Below are positions 7,036-64,000 of a DNA stretch of 64,000 nt, one piece after another. The position numbers and the translations under genes are program-made. The stretch is from SAR202 cluster bacterium Io17-Chloro-G2. GTDB lineage: Bacteria > Chloroflexota > Dehalococcoidia > Lucifugimonadales > UBA3495. Location: contig MUCP01000010.1 of the NCBI GenBank assembly GCA_002816875.1, forward strand, positions 2,254 through 66,253, read 5' to 3'. Under the pieces are notes generated by a model. It made no database searches, was not told where the DNA came from, and saw nothing but the letters and a program-made list of their open reading frames with translations. Position 1 is the first letter of the stretch. Each line of letters begins with the position of its first letter.

Positions 7036-7542
7036 TCAGCACCCTAGATAGGCGTTGTCGGTCACTCCGAAGGGAGTGGCAACCACCACCGTGCCTGAGA
7101 TGGTCGTTGAGACTGTAGGGCTGACCTTGAGGTCGAATACCACCGTCTCGCCGGGGTTCCAGGCGTTGGGATCCCTGGTATCTGGGGCGATGGAATTCAG
7201 CGCCCACTCGTTATCACTCACGGCGCTGGTCACGTAGTCCAGGCGCCGGTACACTCTGTTGCCGCCAACGTCGGGGTAGTCGGCTATGACGTCCAGTTTA
7301 GAGAAGTCCGCTATCGACGTTTTCCCCGGATTTGTGAGGTCAATGGTATAGGTGTCGCAACCGGATTCGGCCGTGGTGTTGATGATGCTCACCCGGGTGT
7401 TGATCCTTTCGGTGAGCAGAGCGGCGTTGTCTATGGATTCAGAGCTTTGAAGGTCCCAAACGTCCAGCAAAACCAGAAACGTCACGCTGCTCAACACAAT
7501 GAACAGGCCCATGGCGACTGCTGCGCCCAGACTTTCCGTCAT
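7036..7542 (-). CDS. FlaF/FlaG (ArlF/ArlG)-family protein, unlinked paralogue of the gene at 61750..62274
   Basis: N-terminal TM helix followed by a beta-rich domain. Aligns by eye with 61750..62274: TNPGKTSIADFSKLDVIADY / DNTGSRSTPDFSRMDVILEY, SDNEWAL / GNNEWTI, AWNPGETVVFDL / MWDPDEVISIDI, VVVATPFGVTD / VAVVTPWGISD. Confidence 0.6.
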   Translation of the reverse strand: MTESLGAAVAMGLFIVLSSVTFLVLLDVWDLQSSESIDNAALLTERINTRVSIINTTAESGCDTYTIDLTNPGKTSIADFSKLDVIADYPDVGGNRVYRRLDYVTSAVSDNEWALNSIAPDTRDPNAWNPGETVVFDLKVSPTVSTTISGTVVVATPFGVTDNAYLGC

Positions 7543-15831: not shown

Positions 15832-15899
15832 GGCGCCGCCCAAGCCAATCATTTCCTCGGTGAATGCCGTGGCCATATTTCTACGCTCTTTGTTTTAGC
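15832..15899. repeat. Copy B of the 68-bp direct repeat: a decayed duplicate of the hydrolase gene start (ATGGCCACGGCATTCACCGAGGAAAT...) and leader
   Basis: See copy A. The RBS is degraded (AAAGAG versus AAGGAG) and the reading frame stops after about 25 codons. Confidence 0.8.
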
Positions 15900-15925
15900 T
15901 ACTAGTGGGGTTTGGCTTACTGGGT

Positions 15926-16357: not shown

Positions 16358-16643
16358 GTTCTTTGGTCCTCAGTTCCCTTTCTTCCCGGATTATATCGGT
16401 GGAATCCCCGGGAAGCATCTCTCCACCGAATATTTCTTCCCTCAGGGCTAGTAGTTCATCTAGACCCTTCTCGGTAAAGCGAGGTGTCTGGAACACAGCG
16501 TCATGGTCTTGCGCCAGTTCCTTCTCGATGGCCGACACGCAAAATTGGCGCATACTAATGCCCTTCAAAGCAGCGGCTACCTTCAGGCGCCTCTGCACGT
16601 CGGGGTCCAGGTCCAGAGTAAAACGCTTCTTCTTTTCAGGCAA
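16335..16643 (-). CDS. vapB: Ribbon-helix-helix antitoxin (VapB-like)
   Basis: N-terminal beta strand plus two helices (KRFTLDLDPDVQRRLKVAAALKGISMRQFCVSAIEKEL). Position and overlap with vapC support the call. Confidence 0.65.
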   Translation of the reverse strand: MPEKKKRFTLDLDPDVQRRLKVAAALKGISMRQFCVSAIEKELAQDHDAVFQTPRFTEKGLDELLALREEIFGGEMLPGDSTDIIREERELRTKELERRSRS

Positions 16644-16834
16644 GAAGCACCTCCTGTATAGCTGTCAACAGATAGTAGCGTAGTGTATTTGCTGCAATAC
16701 GTCAAAACCCCGGCCATTGGGTATCCGCCGGACAGCCCAAAGTTGCCGTTCGCCAACTAAAAGGATGGACGGCTGAGAGCACCGGCCATCCTAACGGCGC
16801 GGCTGCGTGGGGTCAAGCGGCTATATCTGGGTGC

Positions 16835-32038: not shown

Positions 32039-32875
32039 CTAATCCCTCGCCAGAAAGGCCGTGGCGTCCCTGACCCGGCGTCCCCACCACTCGGGGCCCT
32101 CTACCACGTACTTCCACTCGGGATTTTGCCGGGTGTCGCGGAGCCCAGCCATCACTTCTCGAAAGACCGATGCGCCGGCCTCGGCGAACTCGAAGTACCC
32201 GACAAAGTCGTAGTTCCCCTCCAGACCGTAGCCCTCGGGTGCGTGGATCAGCCGGCGGTTAACGCAAGGGACCCCGGCCGCAGAGACCAGGGCGTGTCCC
32301 TTGACCACCATCTCCTCGTTCTCGTCGTACCGGGGCAGGAAGAAACTCTCCCGGTGCAAGAAGTCCATCTCCCACCAGGCGGTGGTCTTGTTCATGGGCG
32401 TCACCGCCGCCAACGGATACCTGTCGCCGGGCCCCGGCGGCATGGCATGGACGTAGGCGAACTGGGTCATGGCGTGGCTGGTGTAGCTGCTGGGCCGCAT
32501 CACCCCGGCGAGAGTTTCCACGGAACCCCCTGCCCCTTGAACCAGCGCCCGAAGCACCGCTTCGTATTGCTTGATGGGCTCGAGGGCTGCGCACTCCAGC
32601 CGGATCAGACCAAGGGAATCCGAGAGCCCCGGATGGGCAATCTGTTGTTCGGAGGACATCCCAGCCTCGGCTCGCAACAACTGGAACCGCCCCATCTGAA
32701 ACGCCTCCTCTGTCGGCTGGCCGTCAACGTCGTGCATGTTCTCCAAGCCCCGCCCCAACAAATCCAACCCCTCGGCCATCTTCCGCTGGTCCCCTCCGCC
32801 ATCCGCAATTGTGACAAACAAGAAAAGCTGATGGCCTGTGACGGTGGTGGTCATGTTCAGGTCTGCGGGTTGCAT
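32039..32875 (-). CDS. Chlorite dismutase (Cld/HemQ-like) family protein
   Basis: 278 aa. ...TPMNKTTAWWEMDFLHRESFF...GH... resembles the Cld-family C-terminal heme-pocket region. The start ATG shares one base with the stop of the upstream gene (TGATG). Confidence 0.55.
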   Translation of the reverse strand: MQPADLNMTTTVTGHQLFLFVTIADGGGDQRKMAEGLDLLGRGLENMHDVDGQPTEEAFQMGRFQLLRAEAGMSSEQQIAHPGLSDSLGLIRLECAALEPIKQYEAVLRALVQGAGGSVETLAGVMRPSSYTSHAMTQFAYVHAMPPGPGDRYPLAAVTPMNKTTAWWEMDFLHRESFFLPRYDENEEMVVKGHALVSAAGVPCVNRRLIHAPEGYGLEGNYDFVGYFEFAEAGASVFREVMAGLRDTRQNPEWKYVVEGPEWWGRRVRDATAFLARD

Positions 32876-34503
32876 CAGGGAAGCTCCTCGTCAAGGGTGG
32901 ACCCGCGCCCGTGCCGGCTCCTCCCGCCTGCTGCCGCCAGCGCTGCCGGTATCATGGTAACCAGGAACCAGGCCAATTGAACAGGCCCGCCGCCCAGTTG
33001 AGGCGCTGAACAGGCCGACGTGCCGGGTACTTCCGGGACGGGCGCGATAGTGGGGGAGGATATTGGGGTGATTGGTGGTAAATTCGTCGGATTCGATTTC
33101 GTTGGCGGTACAGTTGATACGGCGCCGGACTCAGCGATGGTGGGCATCGCCGTGGCTTGAACCTCTACGGTGTCTCCGGCTGGCCCGGCGTCCAGCTTCA
33201 GTAAAAAGGCGTCCACCGTTCCCTGGGAAGCCTGACCCAAAAGAGGCCCGCGGGTTTCGCCAACAACATACAGGCTTCCGGCGCCGTCGGTTACCACGCC
33301 GTTGGCTAGCTGGGCCAACGGCGTGCCTACCTGGCGAGTCCACAGTCCGTTACCCTGGGAGTCCATTTTATGGATGAATGCGTCCCGCCGCTCCAGCAGA
33401 CTTCCTTCGCCCAACCCAATCTGACCTGGAAACAGACCCCGGGTCCACCCAACCGCATACGAGGCACCCGTCTCGTCCACGGCTATGCCTAAAGCCCTAT
33501 CTTCCTTAGGCGTACCAAACTGATGCGTCCAAATGTCGTTACCCTCGCCGTTGATTTTTGTTACAAAAGCGTCGGTACCGCCGGCCTGCGTCTGGCCCGA
33601 AAGGGAGCCGGAGACCCATCCTGCGACGTATAAACCTCCCTGGGAGTCTACCGCGGCAGCCAAGAATCTTGCGAAACCAAAGATGTGGGGCCGCCGTTCC
33701 CAGACCAGAGTCCCGTCGGGCCGGTACTTTCGAACGAAGGGCCTGATGGTCACTTGATGACCCTGCCCGATGAGCGTGATCTCCCCTCCGCTGGAGCCGG
33801 CGACAAAAATGTTTCCCAAGCCGTCTGCGGCCACAGCCGCGGCAAAGTCGCCGCCGCCGGCCCCAAACTGGCGGGTCCAACGCTCGTTGCCATTGGGGTC
33901 ATAGCTGCGGATGAAGGCGTCTTTAGAGCCGAAGCTGGTTTGTCCGGGCAGGGCTTCTTCAGTTTGGCCCACCACGTAGGAGTTACCGGCAGGATCAACT
34001 GCCACACCTGTAGCCCACGCCCGGCCGGGAGCGCCAAACTGGCGGGCCCACAGCTCGGTTCCATCACTGCTAAATTTGCGAAGAAAGGCGGTGGCGAAAC
34101 CCGAAACAGCCGCACGGTTTGGGGGAGCCTGGGCCATCTGACCTGCCAAGAATAGGTCTCCGCCGGCGCCAACGGCTACCGACCAAGCGATATCGGCGCC
34201 GACGCTACCGAATTGGCGCGCCCAGACCGGGTTTCCTAAGGAGTCGACCTTGAGCACGTAGGCGTCGCTGTCTCCCCCGATCCTGGTCTGGTCCATCAGT
34301 CTCCCGGCCGTGTGGCCGGCTATATAAATGTATCCCGATTGATCCACGGACACGGCCGCCGCCTTATCTGTGAAGGAGGTTCCGAATTGACGGACCCACG
34401 TGTTGCTCTGGCCAGCCACGATGCCAGCGGTAAGGACCCCCAAGAATACTATTGACGCGGCCGCCATCAAAGACCCGATCGCTCGCCGTTTGGAAATGCC
34501 CAC
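32875..34503 (-). CDS. Secreted SBBP-type beta-propeller repeat protein with a C-terminal hydrophobic anchor and basic tail
   Basis: N-terminal signal/TM. About 9 repeats of W(A/T)RQFGxxxxDxAxxVAVDxxGNxYVxGxTxGxLxGQxxxGxxDAF(V/L/I)xK. C-terminus ...GGGPVQLAWFLVTMIPAALAAAGGRSRHGRG. Confidence 0.65.
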   Translation of the reverse strand: MGISKRRAIGSLMAAASIVFLGVLTAGIVAGQSNTWVRQFGTSFTDKAAAVSVDQSGYIYIAGHTAGRLMDQTRIGGDSDAYVLKVDSLGNPVWARQFGSVGADIAWSVAVGAGGDLFLAGQMAQAPPNRAAVSGFATAFLRKFSSDGTELWARQFGAPGRAWATGVAVDPAGNSYVVGQTEEALPGQTSFGSKDAFIRSYDPNGNERWTRQFGAGGGDFAAAVAADGLGNIFVAGSSGGEITLIGQGHQVTIRPFVRKYRPDGTLVWERRPHIFGFARFLAAAVDSQGGLYVAGWVSGSLSGQTQAGGTDAFVTKINGEGNDIWTHQFGTPKEDRALGIAVDETGASYAVGWTRGLFPGQIGLGEGSLLERRDAFIHKMDSQGNGLWTRQVGTPLAQLANGVVTDGAGSLYVVGETRGPLLGQASQGTVDAFLLKLDAGPAGDTVEVQATAMPTIAESGAVSTVPPTKSNPTNLPPITPISSPTIAPVPEVPGTSACSAPQLGGGPVQLAWFLVTMIPAALAAAGGRSRHGRGSTLDEELP

Positions 34504-51893: not shown

Positions 51894-52925
51894 TCAATTG
51901 CGCCTAAGGGACGACTGGTCGGCCACCAAAAGGTCAAGAGCCATCCCCGGTTCCATCTTCCCGCGTTTGATAGACAGATCTGCTTCCAACAGCCGCTGGT
52001 ATCTCCAGGTGATATCTTCCCAGGTATGCCTTCTGGCTTGCTGCATGGTTTTCCGGATGACGAATTGAGAAGACGTGCCCATTTGCTCGCCCAACTCTTT
52101 TTGCGAAGCTCTCTGATCCATACCGCTCTTGGCCAGGGCCAGCAGCCGCACCTGCCTCTGGATCATGGCGATTATGTACAGGGGGTCTCGGCCATCATCC
52201 CTCAGATGTTGCAGCAGAGAGATCGCATCCCTTTGGCGGCCTTCGATCATAGCGTCCACGGCGGTGAAGATATTGGCCTCGGTGGCCTGGGACACCAGCA
52301 CCGGCACGTCGGTATCCTCAATGGTCCGTCCCCATGCGTATAGGGACAATTTCTCCAACTCCCGGTCCAAGGCCCACAGGTCGTTGCCCACCAGGTTGAT
52401 GATTGTTGAGATGGCCGCCGGACTGATTACGGAACCTTTCTCCTGGGCCGCGTCTTTGATCCACCGGGCTAGGTCCTGGCCGCCAGGGGCCGGTAAACCC
52501 CGCACCTGGGATACGTTTGCCAGGGCCTTAAGCAAAGGATTGCTTTGAGAGACAGTCCCGTCGGAAAATATCAGCAACGTAGTGGGGGGCATACCTGTAA
52601 CGGCTTGGGGCAGTCCTTCCCAAGAACCCAATGCCCCGCCGGAGGGGCCGCTGGGTTCCTGGCCCTGGTTGCTGCCTCTCCTAGCTCGGCGGGGCGCGCG
52701 CCGGCCTTCCAACGTGGCCAGCAGTCCTTGCACCACCACCAGTCTAACGGTGTCCATGAAGGGAAGGGCGTTACAAATCTCCACCAATTCGTTCAGGGTG
52801 GCTTCGGTTCCTTCTAGCCGGTGGCGGTTGGCATCTAGTAGGCCGGAGGCCTCGTCTTGAGCCTCTAGTTTGGCCTGGGCCTTGGCCACCAGAAAGCTGT
52901 CGCCGTGCAAGACATGAGCGGGCAA
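51894..52925 (-). CDS. holA: DNA polymerase III delta subunit
   Basis: 343 aa. ...HVLHGDSFLV..., ...LPFMDTVRLVVV..., and the C-terminal helical domain pattern of HolA. Confidence 0.75.
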   Translation of the reverse strand: MPAHVLHGDSFLVAKAQAKLEAQDEASGLLDANRHRLEGTEATLNELVEICNALPFMDTVRLVVVQGLLATLEGRRAPRRARRGSNQGQEPSGPSGGALGSWEGLPQAVTGMPPTTLLIFSDGTVSQSNPLLKALANVSQVRGLPAPGGQDLARWIKDAAQEKGSVISPAAISTIINLVGNDLWALDRELEKLSLYAWGRTIEDTDVPVLVSQATEANIFTAVDAMIEGRQRDAISLLQHLRDDGRDPLYIIAMIQRQVRLLALAKSGMDQRASQKELGEQMGTSSQFVIRKTMQQARRHTWEDITWRYQRLLEADLSIKRGKMEPGMALDLLVADQSSLRRN

Positions 52926-53151
52926 AGCGTTGCTCCGGGGATGAAAAATGGTTGGGCCGGCAGGGCTGAAAGGCGCCGCGAAAATGGCCGTTCAGCCAGT
53001 GGCAAGATTATAACACCGGCCGGGCCCCTGGGAACCTGCAATCGCCATGCCAACGGTGCTTGCGCAACTGGCGACCAGCCGGTTTCTGTGGAATAATAGC
53101 ACCTGTTTTGGACATCTGGGACGTCGTGAAAAACCGATGGAGAACCAGCGA

Positions 53152-54192
53152 ATGAAGTTCGGACTATTCACTCACATCCCATGGCCCGAAGGCATGGAAC
53201 CCAAACAGGTCTTGGACCACACTACCGAGGAGGTGGTACGGGCCGAAGAGTTGGGATTTCATAGCGCTTGGGTGGCGGAACACCACTTTTCCCGATACGG
53301 ATTGGGTTCTTCTTCCCTGGTGTTCTCGGCCAGCGTGGCGGCGCAGACGAAGAAGATACGCTTGGGCACGGCCATACTTGTTCCTCCTCTGCATCATCCG
53401 ATCAAACTAGCCGAGGACGCCGCCACGCTGGATCTGGTCAGCGGGGGCCGTCTAGACGCGGGCTTTGGCCGGGGCACCGCGGGTTACGAGTACGCGGGAT
53501 ACAATATAGACCGGGAGGAAAGCCAGGACCGTTTCCAAGAGACCATCAAGATCGTGCAAGGGCTGTGGACCACGCCCTGTTTCTCTTATAAAGGCAAACA
53601 TTTTGAATTTGAGGAAGTCAATCTGGTGCCGCCGCCGTTGCAAAAGCCCCATCCGCCGATTTACATCGCGGCCACCAGGACGCCCGCGACCCTGGATTTT
53701 GTGGTGTCCACGGGTCATCCTCTAATCATCGGAGTGGTTTTGGACACCGCCGATGCCCTGGAGCTATGCCGCACTTTTGTGAAAATGTCCAAGAGGGCCG
53801 GGCATGACGTGCCCATTTCCAGCATCCCATTCTTCCGCTACTTCTACGTGGCGGAGACGGAGGATCAAGCCAAAAAGGATACCGAAGCGGCCCTGAGTTG
53901 GACCCTGGATATGGGTCAATGGCGGCGCACATTTGAGCGGGGCAGCGAGGTATACCAAAAGCTTGACGATTGGCGGCGGGTGCGCACCGAGCTCCCCACA
54001 AGCAACGAACACCTTTATGACCGGCGGGCGATAATCGGCACGCCGGAACAATGCGTGGCCCAGATCAAAGAACTACAGAACAACGGCATCGAATACTTCG
54101 GGTGCAATTTCTCTTTCGGCGGCATGGAGCAGGGCAAGATGCTGCGGTCAATGAAGTTATTCGCCGAAGAGGTTATGCCCCACTTTGATTAA
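53152..54192 (+). CDS. LLM-class flavin-dependent oxidoreductase
   Basis: MKFGLF..., EELGFHSAWVAEHHF, ...LDLVSGGRLDAGFGRG... Start could also be the ATG at 53137. Confidence 0.8.
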   Translation: MKFGLFTHIPWPEGMEPKQVLDHTTEEVVRAEELGFHSAWVAEHHFSRYGLGSSSLVFSASVAAQTKKIRLGTAILVPPLHHPIKLAEDAATLDLVSGGRLDAGFGRGTAGYEYAGYNIDREESQDRFQETIKIVQGLWTTPCFSYKGKHFEFEEVNLVPPPLQKPHPPIYIAATRTPATLDFVVSTGHPLIIGVVLDTADALELCRTFVKMSKRAGHDVPISSIPFFRYFYVAETEDQAKKDTEAALSWTLDMGQWRRTFERGSEVYQKLDDWRRVRTELPTSNEHLYDRRAIIGTPEQCVAQIKELQNNGIEYFGCNFSFGGMEQGKMLRSMKLFAEEVMPHFD

Positions 54193-54358
54193 CTCATAGA
54201 TCAACCAACGGGACTGGCCGGTTCAGTTGAAAATCCAGTACAGAGATCCATTAGAGTCGTATCTATCTTAGTTTTACCAATATTGACCTCGTCATTCTCG
54301 TTCAACTGGCGGTTGGCCGTAAACATCCGGTAGACTGGCCCGCCGCGGAGGAATCTAT

Positions 54359-55720
54359 ATGGTCACCATAGCGGAACGTTTGAGTTCCTTTGCCACCTCG
54401 CTGCGTTATCAGGAGCTGCCGCCTGAAGTTGTGCACCAGACCAAGCGCATGATAATCGACACCCTGGGTTGCGCCTTTGGCGGTTATGCCGGACCACCCA
54501 GTAAATTGGCCAGAGACATGGCTTCGATCCTGTCCAGCACCCAGCCGGCCACCGTCATCGGCAGCGGCCAGACCACCAGCCCGGACATGGCGGCCTTCGC
54601 CAACGGGGTGATGATCCGTTACCTGGATTTCAACGACGGCTACACCAGCAAAGAGTCGGGCCATCCCAGCGACAGCATTGCGGCCACCCTGTCGGCCACC
54701 GAGGCGGCCAGGGGAAGTGGTCAGCGGTTGATAGCCTCCACCGTGGTGGCTTACGAAGCATTCTGCCGGGTGTGCGACGCCGTGGACATAAAACCCCAGG
54801 GGTTCGACCACGTCACCGTCGGCTGCATCGCCAGCACCCTGGGAGCGGCAAAGGGTCTGGGCTTGTCCGAGGAGCAGACCCATCAGGCGCTTAACCTGGC
54901 GGTAGCCTCCAACCTGGCTCTCTACCAGACTCGCATCGGCGATGTCTCCATGTGGAAAGGTTGCGCCTACGCCAACGCCAGCCGCAACGCCCTCTTTGCG
55001 GCTATGCTCGCCCGCCGGGGTCTCACCGGCCCGTCGCCCATCTTTGAGGGTCCGGGCGGTTACTTCAAGGCGGTCACCGGTCAGCCCTTCGAGTTGGAGC
55101 CCTTTGGCGGGGAAGGCCGCCCTTACAAGATCATGGAATGCAGCATCAAGCGGTTCCCCTTGGGGCAATACTCCCAAACGGTGGTCCAGGCGGCACTAGA
55201 GGTGCGCCAACAATTGCCGGACGTTAAAGATATCGACCAGGTCAACATCGAGACGCTCCAGACGGCCATAAATATCATGGCCGGCGATGAGGAGAAGTGG
55301 CGGCCGGCCAACCGGGAGACCGCCGACCATTCTATGCCCTATACCGTGGGAGTGGCGTTGCGCTATGGCGAGGTGAAGCAGAACCACTTCGACGAGGAAT
55401 ATCTGGCCGACCAGGAACTGCAGGAGCTGGTGGCTAAGGTCAAGGTCAACGTTTCGGAGGAGGCCAACCAGCGGGCGCCGGAAGCCATGTTGTGCCGTCT
55501 AGAAGTGGTCACCGGTTCCGGCCAACGGTATTCGGCGGAGGTGGCTTACCACAAAGGCCACTACAAAGACCCGCTGGACGATTCGGAGGTGGAAGCCAAG
55601 TTCCGGTCGCTCTGCGAAGGCCGGCTATCCAACGCCCGGACGTCAGCCCTGTTGGAAAGGCTGTGGAACCTAGATAAGGTTGAAGAGATGGAAGAGGTCC
55701 TCAGGGTGGCTAAGATCTAG
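54359..55720 (+). CDS. MmgE/PrpD family protein (2-methylcitrate dehydratase-like)
   Basis: 453 aa. ...DTLGCAFGG..., ...DFNDGY...GHPSD..., and the C-terminal PrpD domain pattern. Confidence 0.8.
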   Translation: MVTIAERLSSFATSLRYQELPPEVVHQTKRMIIDTLGCAFGGYAGPPSKLARDMASILSSTQPATVIGSGQTTSPDMAAFANGVMIRYLDFNDGYTSKESGHPSDSIAATLSATEAARGSGQRLIASTVVAYEAFCRVCDAVDIKPQGFDHVTVGCIASTLGAAKGLGLSEEQTHQALNLAVASNLALYQTRIGDVSMWKGCAYANASRNALFAAMLARRGLTGPSPIFEGPGGYFKAVTGQPFELEPFGGEGRPYKIMECSIKRFPLGQYSQTVVQAALEVRQQLPDVKDIDQVNIETLQTAINIMAGDEEKWRPANRETADHSMPYTVGVALRYGEVKQNHFDEEYLADQELQELVAKVKVNVSEEANQRAPEAMLCRLEVVTGSGQRYSAEVAYHKGHYKDPLDDSEVEAKFRSLCEGRLSNARTSALLERLWNLDKVEEMEEVLRVAKI

Positions 55721-55762
55721 CGGCAGGGACCTCTTCGATCTGGTCAACCCGTGGCAATCAGC

Positions 55763-56161
55763 CTACGCCGTAGGCTTGGCGTAGTTGCCCGAGTGGTCCT
55801 CAAAGGCGCCAACCAAGGGAAATATCTGGTTGTAGAGGCCCCGGGCCCGCTGGCGGATGTGGGGGCCGGCCGCGTCGCGGAGCTTGCTGGGCCTGGACCG
55901 TTGGGATTTGTATAGCTCGCTCTCCAGGGGACTGGCGTCTTCCAACTCCCAGATGCAGAGATAGTCCAGAACACCTTCACCTTCTTGGAGCTTGAACCGG
56001 CGGGCGCTGACGTATCCAGGGATCTCCAACCGCTCCGGCAGGTGCTCGTCGTTGTACCAGCGGTCGAACTCCTCCTCGTTGCCTTGGTCAACCTCCATCA
56101 TCACCACCAAGATTGTGTTGCCTATATGCTGGATCGGATGCTTGCCGTCGAATTCGGCCAT
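55763..56161 (-). CDS. Small dimeric alpha/beta-barrel (EthD/DUF4286-like) protein
   Basis: ...EEEFDRWYNDEHLPERLEIPGYVSARRF... is typical of this fold family. GGAGGTG RBS before the ATG at 56161. Confidence 0.4.
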   Translation of the reverse strand: MAEFDGKHPIQHIGNTILVVMMEVDQGNEEEFDRWYNDEHLPERLEIPGYVSARRFKLQEGEGVLDYLCIWELEDASPLESELYKSQRSRPSKLRDAAGPHIRQRARGLYNQIFPLVGAFEDHSGNYAKPTA

Positions 56162-56307
56162 GAGACCACCTCCAATCTTCCTTGAGGAAATACCAGACGG
56201 CCCAGGCGTGGCTGGGCTCTTGCCTGGCGATGGGGCGTAGTATAACATTGGGAAGCTTTTTCAGAGGAGATTTTTCTCCAAGCAACCCTTGGTCCAAAGG
56301 GAGCGAG

Positions 56308-56787
56308 ATGAATCAACAGATTCGCCTGACAGTCAATGGGACCGAACACCGGTCGGAGGTCCCTGCCCGCCGCTTACTGGTCGATTTTCTTCGTTATGAC
56401 CTGGGTCTGACCGGCACCAAAGAAGGCTGTAGCGTGGGGGTTTGCGGGGCCTGCACCGTTTTGATCGACGGTGAGATGGCCGCTTCCTGCATCACCCTTG
56501 CGGCAGCGGTGGACGGCGCCCAGATAACCACCATTGAGGGGATCGCCCAGGATGGAAAGTTGCACCCGGTGCAGCAGGCGTTCATCGACCACGGCGGTTT
56601 CCAGTGCGGTATTTGCACGCCGGGACAGGTGATGGCGGCCAAAGCGCTGTTGGACGAGAATCCCAACCCCACTGAAGATGAGATCAAAGCGTGGATGATG
56701 GGGAATCTTTGCCGTTGCACCGGATATTACGGCATTTTGAATTCGGTGGCCGCCGCCGCGGGTTCTACCCCCGGCTCTAATGCGTAA
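56308..56787 (+). CDS. (2Fe-2S)-binding small subunit of a molybdenum hydroxylase (CoxS/XdhC-type)
   Basis: C..G.CGAC cluster (GCSVGVCGACTV) and C.C..GQ...C.C (QCGICTPGQ...CRCTGY). Confidence 0.85.
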   Translation: MNQQIRLTVNGTEHRSEVPARRLLVDFLRYDLGLTGTKEGCSVGVCGACTVLIDGEMAASCITLAAAVDGAQITTIEGIAQDGKLHPVQQAFIDHGGFQCGICTPGQVMAAKALLDENPNPTEDEIKAWMMGNLCRCTGYYGILNSVAAAAGSTPGSNA

Positions 56788-56796
56788 GGAGGCTTG

Positions 56797-57690
56797 ATGA
56801 ACGACTTTGAATTTCACAGCCCCTCCAGCCTGGAAGAAGCCTTCGAGCTATTGGACCGGTATGGCGATGACGCCAGGGTGATGGCCGGCGGCACCGGCGT
56901 GGTGTTGCAGATGAAGCAGCGGCTGTCCCAACCGGGGCATGTCGTCGGTCTAAGAAAGGTCCCTGGCCTGAATTCCATCGGCCTGACTGGCAACGGTAGC
57001 GCCGGGGGAATAGAAGTTGGCGCCATGGTGACCCACAGGACCCTGGAAAACGACCCCACGGTAGTCCAAATTCTGCCCATGGTGGCCGCCACCTACCATC
57101 ACGTGGCGACCCCCCGGATCCGTTCCATGGCCACGGTGGGCGGCGGTTTGGTTCACGGAGACCCCAATGAAGACCCGCCTCCTACGTTGATCGCCCTGGG
57201 CGCTTTGGTGGTGTTGACCTCCTCCTCGGGCCGGCGGGAAATGCCCGTTGAAGAACTTTTCGTTGACTACTATGAGACCGATGTCCAACCAGGGGAGATC
57301 CTTACCAGCGTCACCATTCCGCAACAGCCGCCGGGCTCCGGCTCTGCCTATCTGAAATTCCTGCCCCGTACCGCTGACGACTACGCGACGGTCTCCGTCG
57401 CGGCTATAGTCACCCGGGGAAATGGCAACACCTGTAGCGACGTCAAGATCGTTTTGGGGGCCGTGGGCATGACCCCGGTACATGCCACCCAGGCCGAGTC
57501 TTTGCTGCGGGGCCAAACCTTGACTCCAGAGAACATCGCGGCTTGCGCCTCAGCGGTCAAAGAGGTGGTTGACCCGTTGGACGATTTTAGGGGGTCAGCC
57601 GAATACAAACGGGATATGGCCGAGGTTTTCACCCGCCGGGCAATAGAACAAGCTATTCAACAGACCTTGGAAAACAGGCCGGCGGCATGA
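56797..57690 (+). CDS. FAD-binding medium subunit of a molybdenum hydroxylase (CoxM-type)
   Basis: ...MAGGTGVVLQMK... FAD motif and a CO_deh_flav_C-like C-terminus (FRGSAEYKRDMA). AAGGAGG RBS. Confidence 0.85.
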   Translation: MNDFEFHSPSSLEEAFELLDRYGDDARVMAGGTGVVLQMKQRLSQPGHVVGLRKVPGLNSIGLTGNGSAGGIEVGAMVTHRTLENDPTVVQILPMVAATYHHVATPRIRSMATVGGGLVHGDPNEDPPPTLIALGALVVLTSSSGRREMPVEELFVDYYETDVQPGEILTSVTIPQQPPGSGSAYLKFLPRTADDYATVSVAAIVTRGNGNTCSDVKIVLGAVGMTPVHATQAESLLRGQTLTPENIAACASAVKEVVDPLDDFRGSAEYKRDMAEVFTRRAIEQAIQQTLENRPAA

Positions 57691-57727
57691 GAACGGCTGC
57701 CGCAAAGCCGAGCGCGAGGCCGGGTCT

Positions 57728-58189
57728 ATGAGGCTGGAAAACAGTTGTCTGATCCCGGCTGGCCGCTCTGCCGCTTGGGAACTGTTGATGGATATTCCCC
57801 AGGCGGCCGCCTGCGTCCCCGGCCTACAGGAAATCGTTCCCGATGGTGAGAACCAGTATCGCGCTAGGTTGGAGTCCCGCGTGGGGCCCATGAGATTTAG
57901 CTTTTCCGGTACCGTCCTTGTGGTGGAGAAGGATGAGTCCAAGGCAGAGGCGCGGTTTCAAGTAGAGGCGTCCGACCCCAAGGTTGGCGGTACCATCAAG
58001 GCTGACATGACGATGCGGCTGATAGATTGCGCCCCAGGGCAGAGCGAGCTTTCCATAGTCACCGAAACCGCCTTTATGGGCAAGCTGGGTGAACTGGGCC
58101 AGCCCCTGATGCACCGCAAAGCAAAGAGCACCATGGAAGGGTTCGCCCACAACCTGGTGCAATTGCTTCAGCAGCAGGCCGGCAACTAA
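57728..58189 (+). CDS. SRPBCC-fold CoxG-like protein
   Basis: ...W.LL.D....A.C.PG... N-terminus and ...GKL..LGQPLM..KAK......F..NL tail, typical of CoxG. Confidence 0.7.
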   Translation: MRLENSCLIPAGRSAAWELLMDIPQAAACVPGLQEIVPDGENQYRARLESRVGPMRFSFSGTVLVVEKDESKAEARFQVEASDPKVGGTIKADMTMRLIDCAPGQSELSIVTETAFMGKLGELGQPLMHRKAKSTMEGFAHNLVQLLQQQAGN

Positions 58190-58667
58190 CCGCAACAACA
58201 CGCGTTGAACCGCGTGGGTTGATGTTAGCTACGGCCCATTCTCCCTGGGTCGCTCCCTCCCATCGAATCCCAGGGCAATCATGTCCAAAAACTCCCCGGC
58301 TATGGTTGCCTATTGCCATCTTAATCAGAGAACCCCGTTCCCCTGGCTGACTTCAAACCTCGGATCAACCCCAGATATTCCCTATTGCACCCCATTGCAC
58401 CCCGCGCTTGTAAATCCACCAATACCCAGGAAAATCCTCGGCTGCCGGAGTGCTAACACTTTGGACCGATGGAAAACACTGCGTATAAACAGGGGACTAA
58501 CTCCTTGCTGGAATTGCTCGCCCTACACCCAAGATAGGTGGCCGTCCCGTGGGATAACCCTAGGGCCGAACCTAAACTTACTAGAACATGTGGTGGGGGG
58601 TGAGAAAACCTTGCACGGGGGTGGCAAATTTCGACATCCATCCATCGCGGTGCGTTTACCGATTACC

Positions 58668-58697
58668 AAGGGGCACACAGTAACCAGGGGCACACAG
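58668..58697 (+). promoter_or_regulatory. Direct repeat AGGGGCACACAG x2 (17-bp periodicity), 29-58 nt upstream of the archaellin start; candidate operator/promoter element
   Basis: aaggggcacacag (58668-58680) and caggggcacacag (58685-58697), followed by GATAAT (58695-58700) and a GAGAGGGA RBS. Confidence 0.3.
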
Positions 58698-58725
58698 ATA
58701 ATTCATATCGAGAGGGAAAAGCGAA

Positions 58726-59337
58726 ATGAACAACGGAATGGTTAACTTTTGGGCTAGGTTAAAGGCCTGGCTCCCGGACCAGAGGGGCATCACCGGGTTG
58801 GAAACGGCAATCGTGCTGATTGCCTTCGTTGTGGTTTCATCGGTGTTTGCATTCGCCGCTCTGTCCACCGGCCTCTTCTCCAGTGACAAAGCCAAGGAGA
58901 CAATCTCGGCTGGACTGGCTGAGACGAGAGGTACCTTGGAGCAGAAAGGCTCGGTGATCCTGACGTCCAGCACCACCGGCACGTCGGGGGTGATCTCCCA
59001 GATAGAGTTCCAGGTATCCAACGCCGCCGCCGGCGAGCCCATCGACCTGACGCCGGGCAATACCATCATCCGGTACAGCGACAAGAACCAGGTCAAGAAC
59101 CTGACCACCACGGCCGACTTTACCGCGACCAACGTCGCCGCCTTCGGCGACAGTGACAACCTACTGGAAACCGGTGAGATCTTCGAGATCAAGCTGATCG
59201 ATCTAAATTCCAGATTGGACACGGCACTGGGGCCCAGCACTGAGTTCACCATCGAAGTCGTCCCACCCCGTGGCGCCGTGCTGTTCGTCAGCAGGAGAAC
59301 TCCAGTGTCGACGGAAACCAAAGACGTGCTGGATTGA
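58726..59337 (+). CDS. arlB: Archaellin (archaeal-type flagellin, FlaB/ArlB) with a class III signal peptide
   Basis: ...LPDQRG/ITGLETAIVLIAFVVVSSVFAFAAL... matches the archaeal flagellin N-terminal domain. The C-terminal beta-rich part (...DNLLETGEIFEIKL...EFTIEVVPPRGAVL...) follows the archaellin pattern. 203 aa. Confidence 0.8.
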   Translation: MNNGMVNFWARLKAWLPDQRGITGLETAIVLIAFVVVSSVFAFAALSTGLFSSDKAKETISAGLAETRGTLEQKGSVILTSSTTGTSGVISQIEFQVSNAAAGEPIDLTPGNTIIRYSDKNQVKNLTTTADFTATNVAAFGDSDNLLETGEIFEIKLIDLNSRLDTALGPSTEFTIEVVPPRGAVLFVSRRTPVSTETKDVLD

Positions 59338-59373
59338 CCCGGCTCTTCTATTGACAGTCCGGATCTTGGCTGA

Positions 59374-59393
59374 AGCGGCGTCTATGCGCCGCT
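59374..59393 (+). terminator. Hairpin in the 210-nt gap after the archaellin gene (possible attenuator/partial terminator)
   Basis: agcggcg-tctatg-cgccgct: 7-bp stem, no T-tract. Confidence 0.25.
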
Positions 59394-59547
59394 AGGCCAC
59401 CCATCGATAGAAAGATCTGTGGCGCGGCTCGCAGCCGTCAAAGCAGCGCACTGGCCTAAGAGCGGCCCCGGTGGCGGAGACACCCTGTGAGGTGCCTGAC
59501 ACCGGGGGTTGCTTCACTATCAAGACCGCAATGACAGGGAAGCCGCA

Positions 59548-61167
59548 ATGGCCGATGCCGACAGCAGGCTAGAGACCGTAGAGGATGAGCTCAAGGTTCT
59601 AAAGGGGGAGGTGAGGCGAACCCTGGTGGACCTTCGAGCTCTTTTGATGCGTGCTGATTCCCCGATGAACGACGGGTTTATTGGACGCCGGGACGCTTTG
59701 CCGGACCGGGAACCGGAGGATGGGCCCAAGCCGGCCAGGACGGAAATGTCTCAAGTGATCCAACAAGAAACTGGGCCAGCGCTTGCTGCGGCGCCAGCCC
59801 CGGCTCCGGCGCAACCGCCTGCTGCGGCGCCAGCCCCGGCTCCAGTGCAACCCCTGGCCGGAGGACCGGGACAGCCGCCAGTAGGGGGACCCGGGCAACC
59901 TCCGGGAGGGTTATTCCCGCCGGGCTCCGGTCCGCAACAAGGCAGCATTAATTCCCCGGTCATGGGTCCCCCGATAGCCACGCCTAACGGGGAACAAGAG
60001 CGGGCAATGGCCGAACAACAGCGAAGGATGGCTGACCAGGAAAGAAGGATAGCCGAGCAAGACAGGCAGATGGCCGATCTCAGCCGGATGGTTCAAGAAG
60101 GAGCTCAGGCGGCCGAGCAGGCGCCGGGCCAAGACCCGGAGCAGCAGCACAGGTTGGATGAACAACAACGCCAGATCGCCGACCAGAGCCAGCAGATGCC
60201 CGCCATGGACGGCAAGCTAGACGAACAAGGCGGACGCGCTGAAGGCGGCACCCATGGTAATGATGAGGAAAGAGATCATCGGGAACCGGAACAAATCCAG
60301 CAGATAGCCGACCTGAAGGTCCGGGTTGAGGAAGAAGGCCGGTCCACCAGGGAAGCGGTGGCCGAGGCCCAAATAACCAGCCAGCCGCCCAGCCAGCGGA
60401 GGACCGCGGAACCGGAAAATCAAATTGACCCTGACGACGTAGGACCGAAATTAGAGGAAGAAATAGATGAGCCATCTGTCCAAGGCCGGGACGATGAGTC
60501 TGATCGATACCAGGAGAATATACAGACCCCACGCCGGACCGCTGGCCGGCGCGAGGAAATTGCAAACCGGCAACGGGGCCAAAGGACGGGGGGAGGCCGT
60601 GATGTTGGGGGTCTTGGGAACAACGAAGCCTGGGACAAAGAACCGATAGACAAGGAACGCCATCCATCTGGATCCAAACCGGATGGCGTGAAAAGACCCA
60701 GGCCGGTAATAACTGGGAGTAACGATATCGTGGGTAACCACTACCGGAATTCAGGTCATGATGACGTGGAAGATCAGTACCGCGGTGAAAGCGGCAGCCA
60801 TGTCTATGACCAATACCATCAGTTATTCGAAGCCATAGGCGGCGCCGGCGGGGTGGACGATAACGCGGGAAACTCCGCTCCTCTGGACGTGAATCTTCTG
60901 GCGAGTTTGGTGAGGTGGATGACCCTGGCCAAAGGGAGGGTTGGGGAGGCTCGCCTAAAAAGGATATTGGATCTCTATTTAGGGTCTGGCCGAAGCTCGC
61001 CCCAGCTGCGGGAGTTGTTGGTCAGCGTTTCGAGCATGGTAGACACGGTTTCACCCGAAACGCCCCAGGCCGCCCAGGAATGCACTGACTTGCTATCCCA
61101 ACTTCACGGCATTTTGACCGGAGGGCTCCAAATAGCCCAGGTGCCTCAGATCAGCTTGTCTGAGTAG
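59548..61167 (+). CDS. FlaD/E (ArlD/E)-domain protein with a very long low-complexity central region
   Basis: The C-terminal ~100 aa (LDVNLLASLVRWMTLAKGRVGEARLKRILDLYLGSGRSSPQLRELL...) resembles the archaeal FlaD/E domain (W..L....G......L.YY...GWIS pattern). Position between arlB and arlF/G matches euryarchaeal operons. N-terminal coiled coil; A/P- and Q/E/R-rich middle. Confidence 0.5.
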   Translation: MADADSRLETVEDELKVLKGEVRRTLVDLRALLMRADSPMNDGFIGRRDALPDREPEDGPKPARTEMSQVIQQETGPALAAAPAPAPAQPPAAAPAPAPVQPLAGGPGQPPVGGPGQPPGGLFPPGSGPQQGSINSPVMGPPIATPNGEQERAMAEQQRRMADQERRIAEQDRQMADLSRMVQEGAQAAEQAPGQDPEQQHRLDEQQRQIADQSQQMPAMDGKLDEQGGRAEGGTHGNDEERDHREPEQIQQIADLKVRVEEEGRSTREAVAEAQITSQPPSQRRTAEPENQIDPDDVGPKLEEEIDEPSVQGRDDESDRYQENIQTPRRTAGRREEIANRQRGQRTGGGRDVGGLGNNEAWDKEPIDKERHPSGSKPDGVKRPRPVITGSNDIVGNHYRNSGHDDVEDQYRGESGSHVYDQYHQLFEAIGGAGGVDDNAGNSAPLDVNLLASLVRWMTLAKGRVGEARLKRILDLYLGSGRSSPQLRELLVSVSSMVDTVSPETPQAAQECTDLLSQLHGILTGGLQIAQVPQISLSE

Positions 61168-61243
61168 CCAACCCTTAAATTCAACCAACATTTCAGCCGA
61201 AAGTTCACGGGGAACTACCTTCACCTCCTAAACAGGTATTGTA

Positions 61244-61711
61244 ATGGAAAAGGCGATAACCACCTCCCTCATGATCATCGCCAGCATAGTTGCCGCTATG
61301 GCGTTGATCAACGCCGTCATCCCGGCCATGGGCAAGAGCGCCAGCGCCCTGGCGACGGCCAACTCGGCCACGGCCGACCGCATCCGGACTGATATTGAGA
61401 TCATCCATGCCACGGGGGACGACGCCGGCGAAGTAATAACCGTCTGGGTGAAAAACGTCGGCACCAAAAAGATCAATCCCATCAAATCCAGCGATATCAT
61501 CCTGACTACGCCCACCACCGTTGCTTCTCTACCCTATGTCAGCGGTTGCTCCTCAGAATGTTGGGACTACGCCCTGGAAGGGGGTGCAACTGATTGGAGC
61601 CAAGCAGTGACCGTTAAATTCACCCTGAAGACCACGGTTGACACCGGCGTTTACACCGTCACGGTCAGTTCTCCCAACGCCACCAGCGCCAGCGAAGATT
61701 TCAGCGTATAG
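61244..61711 (+). CDS. FlaF/FlaG (ArlF/ArlG)-family protein (ArlF by operon position)
   Basis: Archaellin-like N-terminal helix (AITTSLMIIASIVAAMALINAV) followed by ...ADRIRTDIEIIHA...VWVKNVGTKKI... beta-sandwich pattern. Confidence 0.65.
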   Translation: MEKAITTSLMIIASIVAAMALINAVIPAMGKSASALATANSATADRIRTDIEIIHATGDDAGEVITVWVKNVGTKKINPIKSSDIILTTPTTVASLPYVSGCSSECWDYALEGGATDWSQAVTVKFTLKTTVDTGVYTVTVSSPNATSASEDFSV

Positions 61712-61749
61712 CCAGGTATGCCAAGTTTTGATAAAGAGCCAGTTGGTAA

Positions 61750-62274
61750 ATGAGCATCATAGCGCCTGGAATAATGGTGATCACTGTATTTTTACTGGCG
61801 TCTGCCCTGATGTTTGGCACGTTTCTCACGGCTTCAGCAACTCAGGGAGATTCCTTGAAGGACCTTGCCACGGTCAACACTGCCCAAGCAGGGGACCAGC
61901 TTGATATCGTCAGCGCCGCGGTGGATACGCCCGATACTGGTGACCTGACGGTAACGGTGGATAACACAGGCTCCCGGTCAACGCCGGATTTCAGCCGGAT
62001 GGACGTGATTTTGGAATACATAGACCCTTCTGACAACGCCGTGGTTACATATATCGATTATTCGGCGTCGGCTCCCGGGAACAATGAATGGACCATTCCG
62101 GCGTTGGGAATCACGCCTGATTCTTTCAATCCCATCATGTGGGACCCCGATGAGGTCATCTCCATCGATATCTTGGTTTTCCCCGCGGTGAAGTCCAACA
62201 CTGCCGCCTTGGTGGCGGTGGTGACGCCGTGGGGGATAAGCGATACCTCTGCGGTAACCAATCCCAGTCCCTAG
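61750..62274 (+). CDS. FlaF/FlaG (ArlF/ArlG)-family protein (ArlG by operon position)
   Basis: N-terminal TM helix, ...LDIVSAAVD...LTVTVDNTGSRS..., 174 aa. Paralogous to 7036..7542. Confidence 0.65.
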   Translation: MSIIAPGIMVITVFLLASALMFGTFLTASATQGDSLKDLATVNTAQAGDQLDIVSAAVDTPDTGDLTVTVDNTGSRSTPDFSRMDVILEYIDPSDNAVVTYIDYSASAPGNNEWTIPALGITPDSFNPIMWDPDEVISIDILVFPAVKSNTAALVAVVTPWGISDTSAVTNPSP

Positions 62275-62333
62275 CGTATCCAGTCCGGGCCCAGGGGTGT
62301 GAAGGGGGGTGAAAAACAATAGAGGAGAAAAAT

Positions 62334-63050
62334 ATGACCACTTCGCTTGATGGCACCCGGGTCATATCCACCGGCAGCAAGGAGATCGACAAAAAGATGG
62401 GCGGCGGTATCCCGGTGGGGTCGTTGGTTCTGCTGGAAGGCCAATCCGACGCGGGTAAAAGCGTTCTGTGTCAGCATTTTTCCCATGGAACTCTCAGTTC
62501 CAGTATGTCCTCGGTTTATTACACCACTGAGAATACGGTAAAAAGTCTGGTGTCTCAGATGAGTTCGCTGAACCTGGATGTTACCGACTACTTCCTATGT
62601 GACCGGATGAGGATCTATCCCCTGGACATCGCCTCGTCAGAGGATTCCGACTCTGGGACGGCATTCCGGGTCCTGACCGACCACTTGGACAGTCTGCCCA
62701 GCCGGTTCAACTTGGCGGTCATCGATTCACTCACCGGATTGGTCGCCAAGAGTGATGACCACGCCATCATCGATTTTTTCGCCTCATGCAAAAGGCTGTG
62801 TGACGGCGGACGGACCGTATTGGCGGTGGTCCATTCTTATGCCTTCGATGACCGCATGCTCATTCGAATCAGATCGTTGTGCGATGCCCACCTGGTGATG
62901 AAGATGGAACAGGTGGGAGAGCGGCTGGTCAAGATATTAGAGGTTGCCAAGGTTCGCAACGCCGACCAGAGCACCGGCAACATCGTCAGCTTCGACGTAG
63001 AGCCGGGAATGGGCATGAAGATCATTCCTATAGCAAAGGCCAAGGCATAG
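62334..63050 (+). CDS. arlH: ArlH (FlaH), KaiC/RecA-like archaellum ATP-binding protein
   Basis: STGSKEIDKKMGGGIPVGSLVLLEGQSDAGKS (Walker A), ...LAVIDSLT... (Walker B-like), about 238 aa, immediately upstream of arlI. Confidence 0.8.
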   Translation: MTTSLDGTRVISTGSKEIDKKMGGGIPVGSLVLLEGQSDAGKSVLCQHFSHGTLSSSMSSVYYTTENTVKSLVSQMSSLNLDVTDYFLCDRMRIYPLDIASSEDSDSGTAFRVLTDHLDSLPSRFNLAVIDSLTGLVAKSDDHAIIDFFASCKRLCDGGRTVLAVVHSYAFDDRMLIRIRSLCDAHLVMKMEQVGERLVKILEVAKVRNADQSTGNIVSFDVEPGMGMKIIPIAKAKA

Positions 63051-63054
63051 ATCT

Positions 63055-64000
63055 ATGACCACAACAACGAAAAGGACGAAAAACGAGTCAAGCCATTCTC
63101 ACAAAGAAGGGATTGCCTCCTGCCCCGTGTTCCGGATGTTGCCTGAGCCGCTGCAACTGGAATCTCAAAAGAAAGAGTTCCTGTTGCAATACATTCACAG
63201 CCTGCCGATGGAAAATATCGGCGTGCCCGAGTATGTCGCCAGTCTAGAACGTAGCATGGGTGATATTAAAGACCCAAACCTGATCTATCCCATAGACAAG
63301 GGCCTGTACATACACGTTTTCTCCGACCCCTCCGACGCCCGTAACTTCTACGTGCCCATCGAGCCGGGAATGGCCGATGGCAATCTTGAATTGATGGAGG
63401 AACTGGAAGAACGCCTGGTGGATTATGTCGCCGAGTTGGAAAACATGACCGGCGACCAGGCCAGGAAATCCGCGGTCTTGCGCGGGATCGTGAAAAAGGC
63501 TTGCGTGGTGGTTAATCCCCGTGATGTACGAAAGGAGCGGGCCAAAGCCAAAAAAAATGGTTCGGCCAGGCTTCCAGTCACCAAGGCGGAAATGGCCACT
63601 TTGTCTTACCGGATGGAAAGGGACAAGCAAGGCATGGGGTTGCTGGAACCGCTCATCCTAGACACCAATATTGAAGACATAAGCTGCAGTGGCACAGGGC
63701 CGATCTTCATAGAGCACAAGATCTTCAAAAGCATGAAAAGCAGCGTGGGTTTCGAAACGCCCAACGAACTTGACTCCTTCGTCATCCAACTATCCGAGAA
63801 GATTGGGCGGCCCGTGACCTACCGGGAGCCCATCGTCGACGCTACGCTATTGGATGGTTCCAGGATCAACATGGTGTACGGTGAAGACGTCTCCAAGCGA
63901 GGAAGCAACTTCACCATCCGGAAATTCGCCACTGAACCGTTGAGCATGATTCAACTGGTGGAGTTTGGCGGTCTCACTTATGAAATGGCGGCCTACCTTT
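63055..64000 (+). CDS. arlI: ArlI (FlaI) archaellum assembly/motor ATPase, N-terminal 315 codons; the 3' end lies outside the window
   Basis: My translation of frame 1 from the ATG at 63055: ...NLIYPIDKGLYIHVFSDPSDARNFYVPIEP..., ...LEPLILDTNIEDISCSGTGPIFIEHKIF..., ...IVDATLLDGSRINMVYGEDVSKRGSNFTIRKF... This is the typical FlaI N-terminal and pre-Walker region. The ORF is absent from the ORF track because it has no stop within the window. Confidence 0.85.
   Translation, partial: MTTTTKRTKNESSHSHKEGIASCPVFRMLPEPLQLESQKKEFLLQYIHSLPMENIGVPEYVASLERSMGDIKDPNLIYPIDKGLYIHVFSDPSDARNFYVPIEPGMADGNLELMEELEERLVDYVAELENMTGDQARKSAVLRGIVKKACVVVNPRDVRKERAKAKKNGSARLPVTKAEMATLSYRMERDKQGMGLLEPLILDTNIEDISCSGTGPIFIEHKIFKSMKSSVGFETPNELDSFVIQLSEKIGRPVTYREPIVDATLLDGSRINMVYGEDVSKRGSNFTIRKFATEPLSMIQLVEFGGLTYEMAAYL

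Follow-up and report, generated by a model that had tools for sequence, protein, structure and literature searches.

Archaellum (archaeal flagellum) gene clusters have been described in Chloroflexota, both in cultures and in genome surveys. In cultivated members of the SAR202 lineage, Lim et al. (2023, PMC10444878) reported copies of the archaellin gene flaB followed by flaGFHIJ, with a candidate for the peptidase FlaK encoded elsewhere, and recognized flaB in 45 Chloroflexota genomes. Archaellum loci have since been reported from 243 of 3,780 Chloroflexota genomes (Sivabalasarma et al. 2025, PMC12488501): these include homologues of arlCDE, show the order arlG-arlF, and have their class III peptidase outside the locus, an archaeal-like PibD in the case of SAR202. 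The same study solved the archaellum filament of Litorilinea aerophila at 2.7 Å, demonstrated swimming, found flagella and archaella to be mutually exclusive in the phylum, and inferred Methanotecta as the source, by a single transfer of the whole operon (PMC12488501). A paper of 2026 (PMC13319060) described anchoring in the envelope of L. aerophila via PilN and a PilO-LysM protein, the mechanism in Chloroflexota without PilN/PilO being left open. Here we analyze an archaellum operon at the end of a 64,000-nucleotide stretch of DNA (the window) from SAR202 cluster bacterium Io17-Chloro-G2 (contig MUCP01000010.1).

Our data support the view that the window, together with its extension, carries an entire archaellum operon of arl2 type, which is a stable resident of the chromosome of a SAR202-lineage member of the Dehalococcoidia and goes back to an old event in which all its genes passed together from a Methanotecta-type euryarchaeon to Chloroflexota; we place the probability of this reading at roughly 0.93. 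Archaellum clusters of SAR202 and other Chloroflexota having been published in 2023 and 2025, the locus is a confirmation rather than a discovery. The movement of a rotary motility machine between domains is remarkable biology, already documented for Chloroflexota and for SAR202, to which the locus adds one more clean, syntenic and selection-maintained example, apparently of another kind of source than the marine loci. An earlier note on this DNA, which had proposed the archaellum, put such loci in only a few Chloroflexota; the survey count given above makes that view outdated.

Six open reading frames (ORFs), all on the plus strand, lie between positions 58726 and 64000, exactly where the earlier note had placed six co-directional archaellum genes. 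Five of the six were identified directly by profile scans (Pfam and NCBIfam), the exception being a protein of 552 amino acids (aa). The last of them, arlI, opens at an ATG at 63055 and is cut by the end of the window, as that note had recognized, with 315 of its 575 codons inside. An exact-protein look-up with ArlH returned a metagenome record from ENA (MIZU16-1_SAMN04325108_METAG-scaffold_551, 52,969 bp; hereafter L001), which is identical to positions 52334 to 64000 of the window (11,667 bases, 0 mismatches) and runs on for 9,050 bases past its end; window and extension, 73 kb in all, make up the sequence examined. On L001 arlI is complete (575 aa, ending at extended coordinate 64782), and arlJ, for which the earlier note had suggested extending the contig, stands immediately downstream (extended coordinates 64730-66229; 499 aa, polytopic), overlapping the arlI stop. 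The gene order is B-D/E-G-F-H-I-J, that is, of arl2 type; the order F-G given by the earlier note has to be reversed. Beyond arlJ come an acidic ORF of 233 aa and then glmS and genes for a GT1 glycosyltransferase, a phosphodiesterase and a GHMP kinase.

Profile hidden Markov models (HMMs) of archaellum proteins are the best matches for ArlB, ArlG, ArlF, ArlH, ArlI and ArlJ. Full-length ArlI matches the FlaI equivalog NF058587 across its whole length with 665 bits (cut-off 550), against 177 bits for BasE, 161 for TadA, 55-62 for GspE and 54 for PilB, with TadA, GspE and PilB far under their cut-offs; the fragment within the window already covers profile positions 2-268 of 527 (expectation value (E) 2.7e-80). 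These scores uphold the earlier assignment to an archaellum as opposed to Tad, type IV pili or type II secretion. Among sequences in the PDB, ArlI ranks FlaI of Sulfolobus acidocaldarius (4ii7, 422 bits) above GspE2 of Archaeoglobus fulgidus (afGspE, 293 bits) and CpaF (164 bits). Its Walker A motif, GETASGKT (residues 329-336), lies past the window end and is invariant across relatives. ArlH, correctly taken to be KaiC-like, scores 272.8 bits with NF004723 FlaH (cut-off 194) and 208.9 with the ArlH equivalog (cut-off 215); its best PDB matches are FlaH entries, S. acidocaldarius 4yds (E 8.9e-35, 124 bits) and 4wia, which stand above RecA and KaiC, and its Walker A motif is GQSDAGKS. ArlJ matched ArlJ models and no others (NF004703 ArlJ/FlaJ, E 4e-111, residues 13-491). 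One relative, whose ArlI is 80% identical, shows a different state of these genes: in L082 (2066-7665) a DDE transposase gene lies between arlH and arlI, two ORFs stand in place of arlH and two in place of arlJ, and further insertion-sequence genes occur downstream.

The archaellin ArlB matches Arch_flagellin and TIGR02537, a model of the archaellin/pilin N-terminal domain, and carries the class III signal peptide ascribed to it in the earlier note, with predicted cleavage after G21, between RG and ITGLETAIVLIAFVVV (RG/ITGLETA). Its best solved relative in a PDB sequence search is the bacterial archaellin of L. aerophila (9i5h, E 4.9e-35), a sequence identical to that of 9SIE/9SII, the entries named in PMC12488501. 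The mature L. aerophila chain, as seen by experiment, begins with ITALETAI, aligned to I22 of the query, and thus supports the predicted cleavage. The 73 kb contain a single arlB.

Two small genes between the 552-aa protein and ArlH had been assigned to the FlaF/FlaG family, and this holds, with their identities now distinguished. The 155-aa protein is closer to NCBIfam ArlG (E 1.8e-10) than to ArlF (6.7e-5) and matches Pfam Arch_flagellin with 33.7 bits; the 174-aa protein is closer to ArlF (E 4e-5) than to ArlG (3.6e-3), matches Arch_flagellin with 40.1 bits, and has an FlaF_Ig-like match at E 3.3e-5, under the gathering score. HMMs built from positional orthologues separate the two more widely: 174 bits for ArlG versus 54 for ArlF in the first protein, and 197 for ArlF versus 27 for ArlG in the second. 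The NCBIfam labels, ArlG for the first small gene and ArlF for the second, hold in all four of four archaeal sister loci. Neither ArlG nor ArlF matched any sequence in the PDB.

The 552-aa protein, which the earlier note had called a FlaD/E-domain protein, has a helix at its N-terminus and a FlaD/E-like helical domain at its C-terminus (residues ~455-545), with ~400 aa of low-complexity linker between them. A word-indexed search with the C-terminal 175 aa returned only six close relatives, a profile of which found 300 relatives among 1.84 billion representative proteins; a Pfam scan of 63 sampled distant members of this family gave no FlaD/E or FlaC match. The C-terminal profile matches the ORF at the equivalent operon position in archaeal loci, with E 6.6e-10 in Methanosarcina sp. 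Mfa9 (L076), and likewise in other loci of Methanosarcinales, ANME-1, Methanomicrobiales and Halobacteria. The L076 protein in turn matches Pfam Arch_fla_DE with 23.4 bits (gathering score 21) at residues 150-218, inside the stretch aligned by the profile (residues 137-225), and several other archaeal positional equivalents have an Arch_fla_DE match just under threshold. Alignment of the SAR202 D/E-like family with the archaeal set by hhalign gives a probability of 96.8% (E 2.8e-10), and in pairwise BLASTP against the archaeal protein the N-terminal helix aligns with 45% identity over 38 aa (E 6e-8), the C-terminal domain with E 9e-9. By transitive homology only, the profile match to L076, the hhalign result and the BLASTP alignments of helix and C-terminal domain support the 552-aa protein as a probable orthologue of the D/E-like protein found in euryarchaeal operons of arl2 type. 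The earlier designation therefore stands by way of archaeal intermediates, and not by any direct Pfam match.

Searched as a profile against the PDB, the D/E-like domain gave chance-level matches only. Its AF2 model, computed from seven aligned sequences (predicted local distance difference test score, pLDDT, of 48), shows no more than a helical bundle and is too poor for a fold search. The start of the gene may lie further in than listed: the ORF opens at a TTG at 59509, while a public gene call begins at the ATG at 59548 (MADADSRLE...), which is the likelier start. In the SAR202 genome Io17-Chloro-G9 (L083, 6383-8077) the D/E-like gene is called as two ORFs of 300 and 145 aa.

The host of the operon is a bacterium. 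As the earlier note had listed, the same sequence encodes HolA (TIGR01128, 200.9 bits, cut-off 80), FabD (323 bits, cut-off 261), NusB, FtsK, L32p, an ACP-like protein and YceD; methylmalonyl-CoA epimerase, RNase J, serA and methylmalonyl-CoA mutase were found as well. The closest named relatives of the RNase J are metagenome-assembled genomes (MAGs) of Chloroflexota/Dehalococcoidia. Directly upstream of arlB stands a trio of CoxG, CO-dehydrogenase FAD subunit and Fer2 genes. The operon recurs, with the same coxG-arlB junction, in the marine MAG SAR202 cluster bacterium Io17-Chloro-G9 (GCA_002816675.1), which shares the upstream flank (luciferase-like, PrpD, DUF4286, Fer2, CO-dehydrogenase FAD subunit, CoxG) and the downstream flank (GlmS, GT1, phosphodiesterase, GHMP kinase). 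That genome was described in PMC5864207, where archaella are unmentioned. In it two extra genes, encoding a pilin-like N_methyl domain and Big_9, lie between glmS and the glycosyltransferase gene; the MAG also holds two different ArlI (86% and 81% identical to the query), and, listed at 4.3 Mb with an asterisk in the source paper, it may be composite.

A comparison of base composition and codon usage, as the earlier note had suggested, gave no foreign signal: measured against 28 host genes, the codon usage of the seven arl genes has z values of -1.1 to +0.4, and guanine-plus-cytosine (GC) content at third codon positions (GC3) is within the host range. The dip in GC toward the end of the window might suggest foreign DNA, a reading that we rejected because, gene by gene, GC3 and codon usage are those of the host. 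Ratios of nonsynonymous to synonymous substitution (dN/dS) relative to Io17-Chloro-G9 are 0.065-0.13 for five of the seven arl genes (arlB, arlG, arlF, arlI and arlJ), close to those of the flanking genes glmS (0.045) and coxG (0.10); they are approximate, with synonymous sites near saturation, and for arlH dS is saturated. Synteny in an independent MAG and codon usage together exclude a chimera. Recent transfer is excluded as well; the cluster has long been in place, has been ameliorated and is kept by purifying selection.

The origin of the operon was addressed through ArlI. A scan of one genome per GTDB species, seeded with the window ArlI and 10 relatives from SAR202, Dehalococcoidia and Chloroflexi, returned 80 loci, 55 in Chloroflexota and 25 in Archaea, the archaeal ones with best-segment identities of 46-62%. 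The closest relatives (64-88% identity) belong to SAR202-cluster, Dehalococcoidia and Chloroflexi MAGs; identity is 48-57% to any archaeal ArlI as against 80-90% to SAR202 sequences. A neighbour-joining tree of 88 sequences was computed over 549 columns, with 100 bootstraps and two Thermoproteota as root. It groups the query with named SAR202 sequences (100% bootstrap), and in it all 63 Chloroflexota ArlI are monophyletic (92%). Their sister group comprises Methanosarcinales, ANME-1, Halobacteria and Methanomicrobiales-M5 (70%), and the two together sit within other Methanotecta-type euryarchaea (100%). With this root, the Chloroflexota clade is nested in Euryarchaeota.

The operon order in the window, B-D/E-like-G-F-H-I-J, is identical to that of arl2-type operons in Methanosarcina and other Methanosarcinales, in ANME-1 and in some Methanomicrobiales (L076, L038, L055 and L025), and with the tree it bears out the euryarchaeal-type origin proposed earlier. 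Tree and shared order reproduce, by cruder methods, the published single transfer of a whole operon from Methanotecta with an arl2-like cluster (PMC12488501). These archaeal operons, the sister group in ArlI, have the N-terminal helix and the C-terminal domain of the D/E-like protein in common with the window. They differ in having an archaeal host, in an ArlI that is only 53-56% identical to that of the window, and in D/E-like proteins of 216-283 aa, as against 552 aa, the linker of the window protein being ~300 aa longer. S. acidocaldarius, source of the best solved relatives of ArlI and ArlH, also has the arl2 order (PMC12488501), but it carries ArlX instead of ArlCDE, and Thermoproteota form the outgroup of the tree.

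Among bacteria, the 'Candidatus Lucifugimonas marina' isolates and SAR202 MAGs of Lim et al. (PMC10444878) belong to the same lineage, as the grouping of ArlI indicates, and have the same core, flaB and then flaG-F-H-I-J; their peptidase gene lies outside the locus, as that of the window would. The isolates, however, have six tandem and six scattered flaB genes, in contrast to the one arlB in the 73 kb; no D/E-type gene is listed by Lim et al., whereas the window has one between arlB and arlG; and the present contig comes from another, non-isolate source. L. aerophila (PMC12488501; 9SIE/9SII) has the same parts list, the same arlG-arlF order and the mature N-terminus ITxLETAI. No bacterial archaellum other than this one has been shown to assemble and to power swimming. 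L. aerophila belongs to another class (Caldilineales) and has pilN, pilO-LysM and cheY beside its cluster and a bacterial-type PilD, none of which is near the window locus; to Anaerolineae-type loci the window ArlI is only ~53-55% identical. Flagellar genes (fli/flg/mot), which the earlier note had found wanting, and chemotaxis genes are absent from the ~45 window ORFs scanned.

Table 1. Archaellum genes and associated features of the 64-kb window (positions of the window; .. denotes a range).
Feature	Product or description	Position	Strand	Evidence
arlB	archaellin, 203 aa	58726..59337	+	Pfam Arch_flagellin E 4e-25, TIGR02537
ArlD/E-like gene	putative ArlCDE homologue of arl2-type clusters, 552 aa	59509..61167	+	transitive homology only
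arlG	stator or periplasmic filament protein, archaellin-like, 155 aa	61244..61711	+	NCBIfam ArlG best
arlF	stator cap protein with Ig-like domain, 174 aa	61750..62274	+	NCBIfam ArlF best
arlH	KaiC/RecA-like motor regulator, 238 aa	62334..63050	+	NF004723 FlaH
arlI	motor and assembly ATPase, codons 1-315 of 575 in window	63055..64000	+	NF058587 FlaI
arlB leader or promoter region	non-coding, conserved	58535..58725	+	alignment with relatives
second ArlF-family gene	168 aa, remote	7036..7542	-	Pfam Arch_flagellin, ArlF family HMM

A mechanism can be drawn from the archaeal system and from L. aerophila. A class III signal peptidase, with its gene in another part of the genome, would cleave pre-archaellin ArlB behind the RG motif. 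The ATP-binding motifs of ArlI and ArlH are intact. An ArlI hexamer seated on polytopic ArlJ, and modulated by the KaiC-like ArlH, would use ATP to drive assembly of the ArlB filament first and its rotation next. ArlG and ArlF would form the stator, which would have to be anchored in the envelope, and the D/E-like protein may serve as a cytoplasmic ring or switch platform. By analogy with these systems, the present organism would express the cluster, assemble the filament and swim.

Other readings of the locus have to be weighed. Because the sequence is a metagenome assembly, an archaeal archaellum contig could have been misjoined to a bacterial contig, in assembly or in binning, within the long gap of 536 bp between coxG and arlB (58190-58725), and GC does fall from 0.59 to 0.53 toward the window end. 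We regard such an artefact as vanishingly improbable: the junction and the genes on either side of it recur in the independently assembled Io17-Chloro-G9, two public contigs carry the window sequence, a 47,752-bp contig of one relative appears to hold homologues of RNase J as well as of ArlI, the codon usage of the arl genes is indistinguishable from that of host genes, ArlI is far nearer to SAR202 than to archaeal sequences, and downstream of arlJ bacterial genes (glmS and others) resume. It is also very improbable that the genes build an adhesion filament, akin to a bacterial Tad or type IV pilus or to an archaeal pilus, instead of a rotary archaellum. The FlaI equivalog outscores BasE, TadA and PilB by wide intervals, none of the archaellum-specific proteins (ArlH, ArlF/G and the ArlD/E-like protein) is missing, FlaI, FlaH and archaellins head the PDB matches, and the ArlI tree places the query in a clade with the archaellum operons of motile methanogens; this outweighs the generic T2SSE domain of ArlI, the single Pfam family matched by archaellins, ArlF and ArlG alike, and the precedent of a second transfer, of an archaeal type IV filament of pilus type, into two Anaerolineales (Sivabalasarma et al., PMC12488501).

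Several observations weigh against a complete and working archaellum of euryarchaeal descent. Direct Pfam and NCBIfam scans of the 552-aa protein (whole, N-terminal 100 aa and C-terminal 155 aa) gave no match; ArlF and ArlG score under the NCBIfam curated cut-off of 110, and ArlJ, at 372 bits, is below the curated NF004703 cut-off of 570. The sequences in the ArlI tree were picked by similarity, and the tree was made by neighbour-joining rather than full maximum likelihood. The class III prepilin peptidase that the earlier note had hoped to meet by extending the contig did not appear: judged by membrane topology and the GxGD motif, the 73 kb contain no such enzyme, no polytopic ORF having GxGD. 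Neither che nor pilN nor pilO genes occur near the cluster, CheF is reported to be absent from Chloroflexota (2026 preprint), and in cultured SAR202 strains with the cluster no archaella were seen and no motility was observed (PMC10444878). Lastly, the archaellum cluster of relative L082 is in decay, and so the system can decay. The observations on peptidase, che, pilN and pilO genes, on cultured strains and on L082, where an insertion sequence sits in the cluster and arlH and arlJ are split, to which the split ArlD/E-like gene of L083 may be added, would fit a genuine archaellum cluster that is cryptic, is expressed only on rare occasions or serves a purpose other than swimming (for example attachment), and is heading for loss. 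This we hold to be unlikely, if a good deal less so than a pilus. All seven arl genes are intact here; the dN/dS values since the split from Io17-Chloro-G9 amount to sustained purifying selection of housekeeping-like strength; the arlB leader is conserved too; and L. aerophila was likewise called non-motile until it was grown on semi-solid medium (PMC12488501).

Returning to the reading of a resident and functional archaellum, four features of the locus are absent from the published descriptions cited here: a conserved leader before arlB, the expanded linker of the D/E-like protein, the acidic protein encoded after arlJ, and a remote arlF. We treat them as leads, not findings. It is possible, though on balance doubtful, that the SAR202 sub-lineage has through them added its own bacterial-side wiring to the imported machine. 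If so, the four, with the leader as a dedicated regulatory element, the D/E-like protein as a switch protein with a long disordered linker and the remote gene as a second stator paralogue, could control and anchor the motor in a bacterium without CheF, PilN/PilO or an archaeal S-layer. What value the locus retains beyond confirmation lies here, in that the remote arlF, the expanded ArlD/E-like protein, the arlB leader and the decay in a sister genome bear on stator anchoring and motor regulation in bacteria.

The leader comprises ~190 nt, is conserved in 5 close relatives and was compared with relatives collected via ArlB matches. Its identity is 79-85% to three close relatives and 67% to a fourth, whereas third codon positions of the adjoining arlB are only 59-66% identical among relatives; sequence farther upstream is not alignable. 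Within the leader are 1-5 copies, variable in number, of a AGGGGCACACAG-like unit, followed by a Shine-Dalgarno-like GAGAGGG; a ATAGGTGGCCGTCCCGTGGGA block is conserved more widely than these units. An exact-pattern scan of metagenome contigs for a leader motif yielded no match, and an Rfam search of the leader nothing relevant at E <= 10. Across 58000-61400 a sigma-70 consensus scan found no sites, and terminator-like matches were weak. The leader was also considered as a structured RNA, a candidate that we rejected (minimum free energy z-score +0.46; unfavourable RNAalifold covariation term).

In the D/E-like protein the linker has grown from ~95 aa to ~400 aa. Within the gene, the DNA is tandemly repeated at 59775-59856 (36-, 18- and 12-nt periods) and at 60007-60060 (21-nt period); these stretches encode Pro/Ala-rich and MAEQQRR-like repeats.

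The ORF that follows arlJ directly (L001, 14080-14781; 2.4 kb past the window end) encodes a very acidic, low-complexity protein with no family match. Its position, the motifs MGILGKLRRK, GLFGRLK and PPTPVYIVDGPE, and a C-terminal helix are kept only in the closest relatives, L082 and L083. It evolves fast: identity is 38% where that of ArlI is 80%.

The remote ArlF-family gene lies 51 kb from the cluster. Its product matches Pfam Arch_flagellin with 36.1 bits (gathering score 29.5) and shares 32% identity with the ArlF of the cluster (E 5e-23), compared with E 3e-5 for ArlG; the ArlF family HMM gives 128 bits and the ArlG HMM 43. Upstream of it and in the same orientation is an ORF (7661-8095) of 144 aa with two hydrophobic segments and no family match, for which no homologue was found in the archaellum loci compared.

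Elsewhere the window contains genes for large beta-propeller proteins on the minus strand (11936-19600 and 32875-34503), TolB-like (459 and 921 aa) or with SBBP/NHL repeats (542 and 345 aa), as well as a 584-aa pentapeptide-repeat protein and a PIN-domain gene (15926-16357), all of them unrelated to the archaellum.

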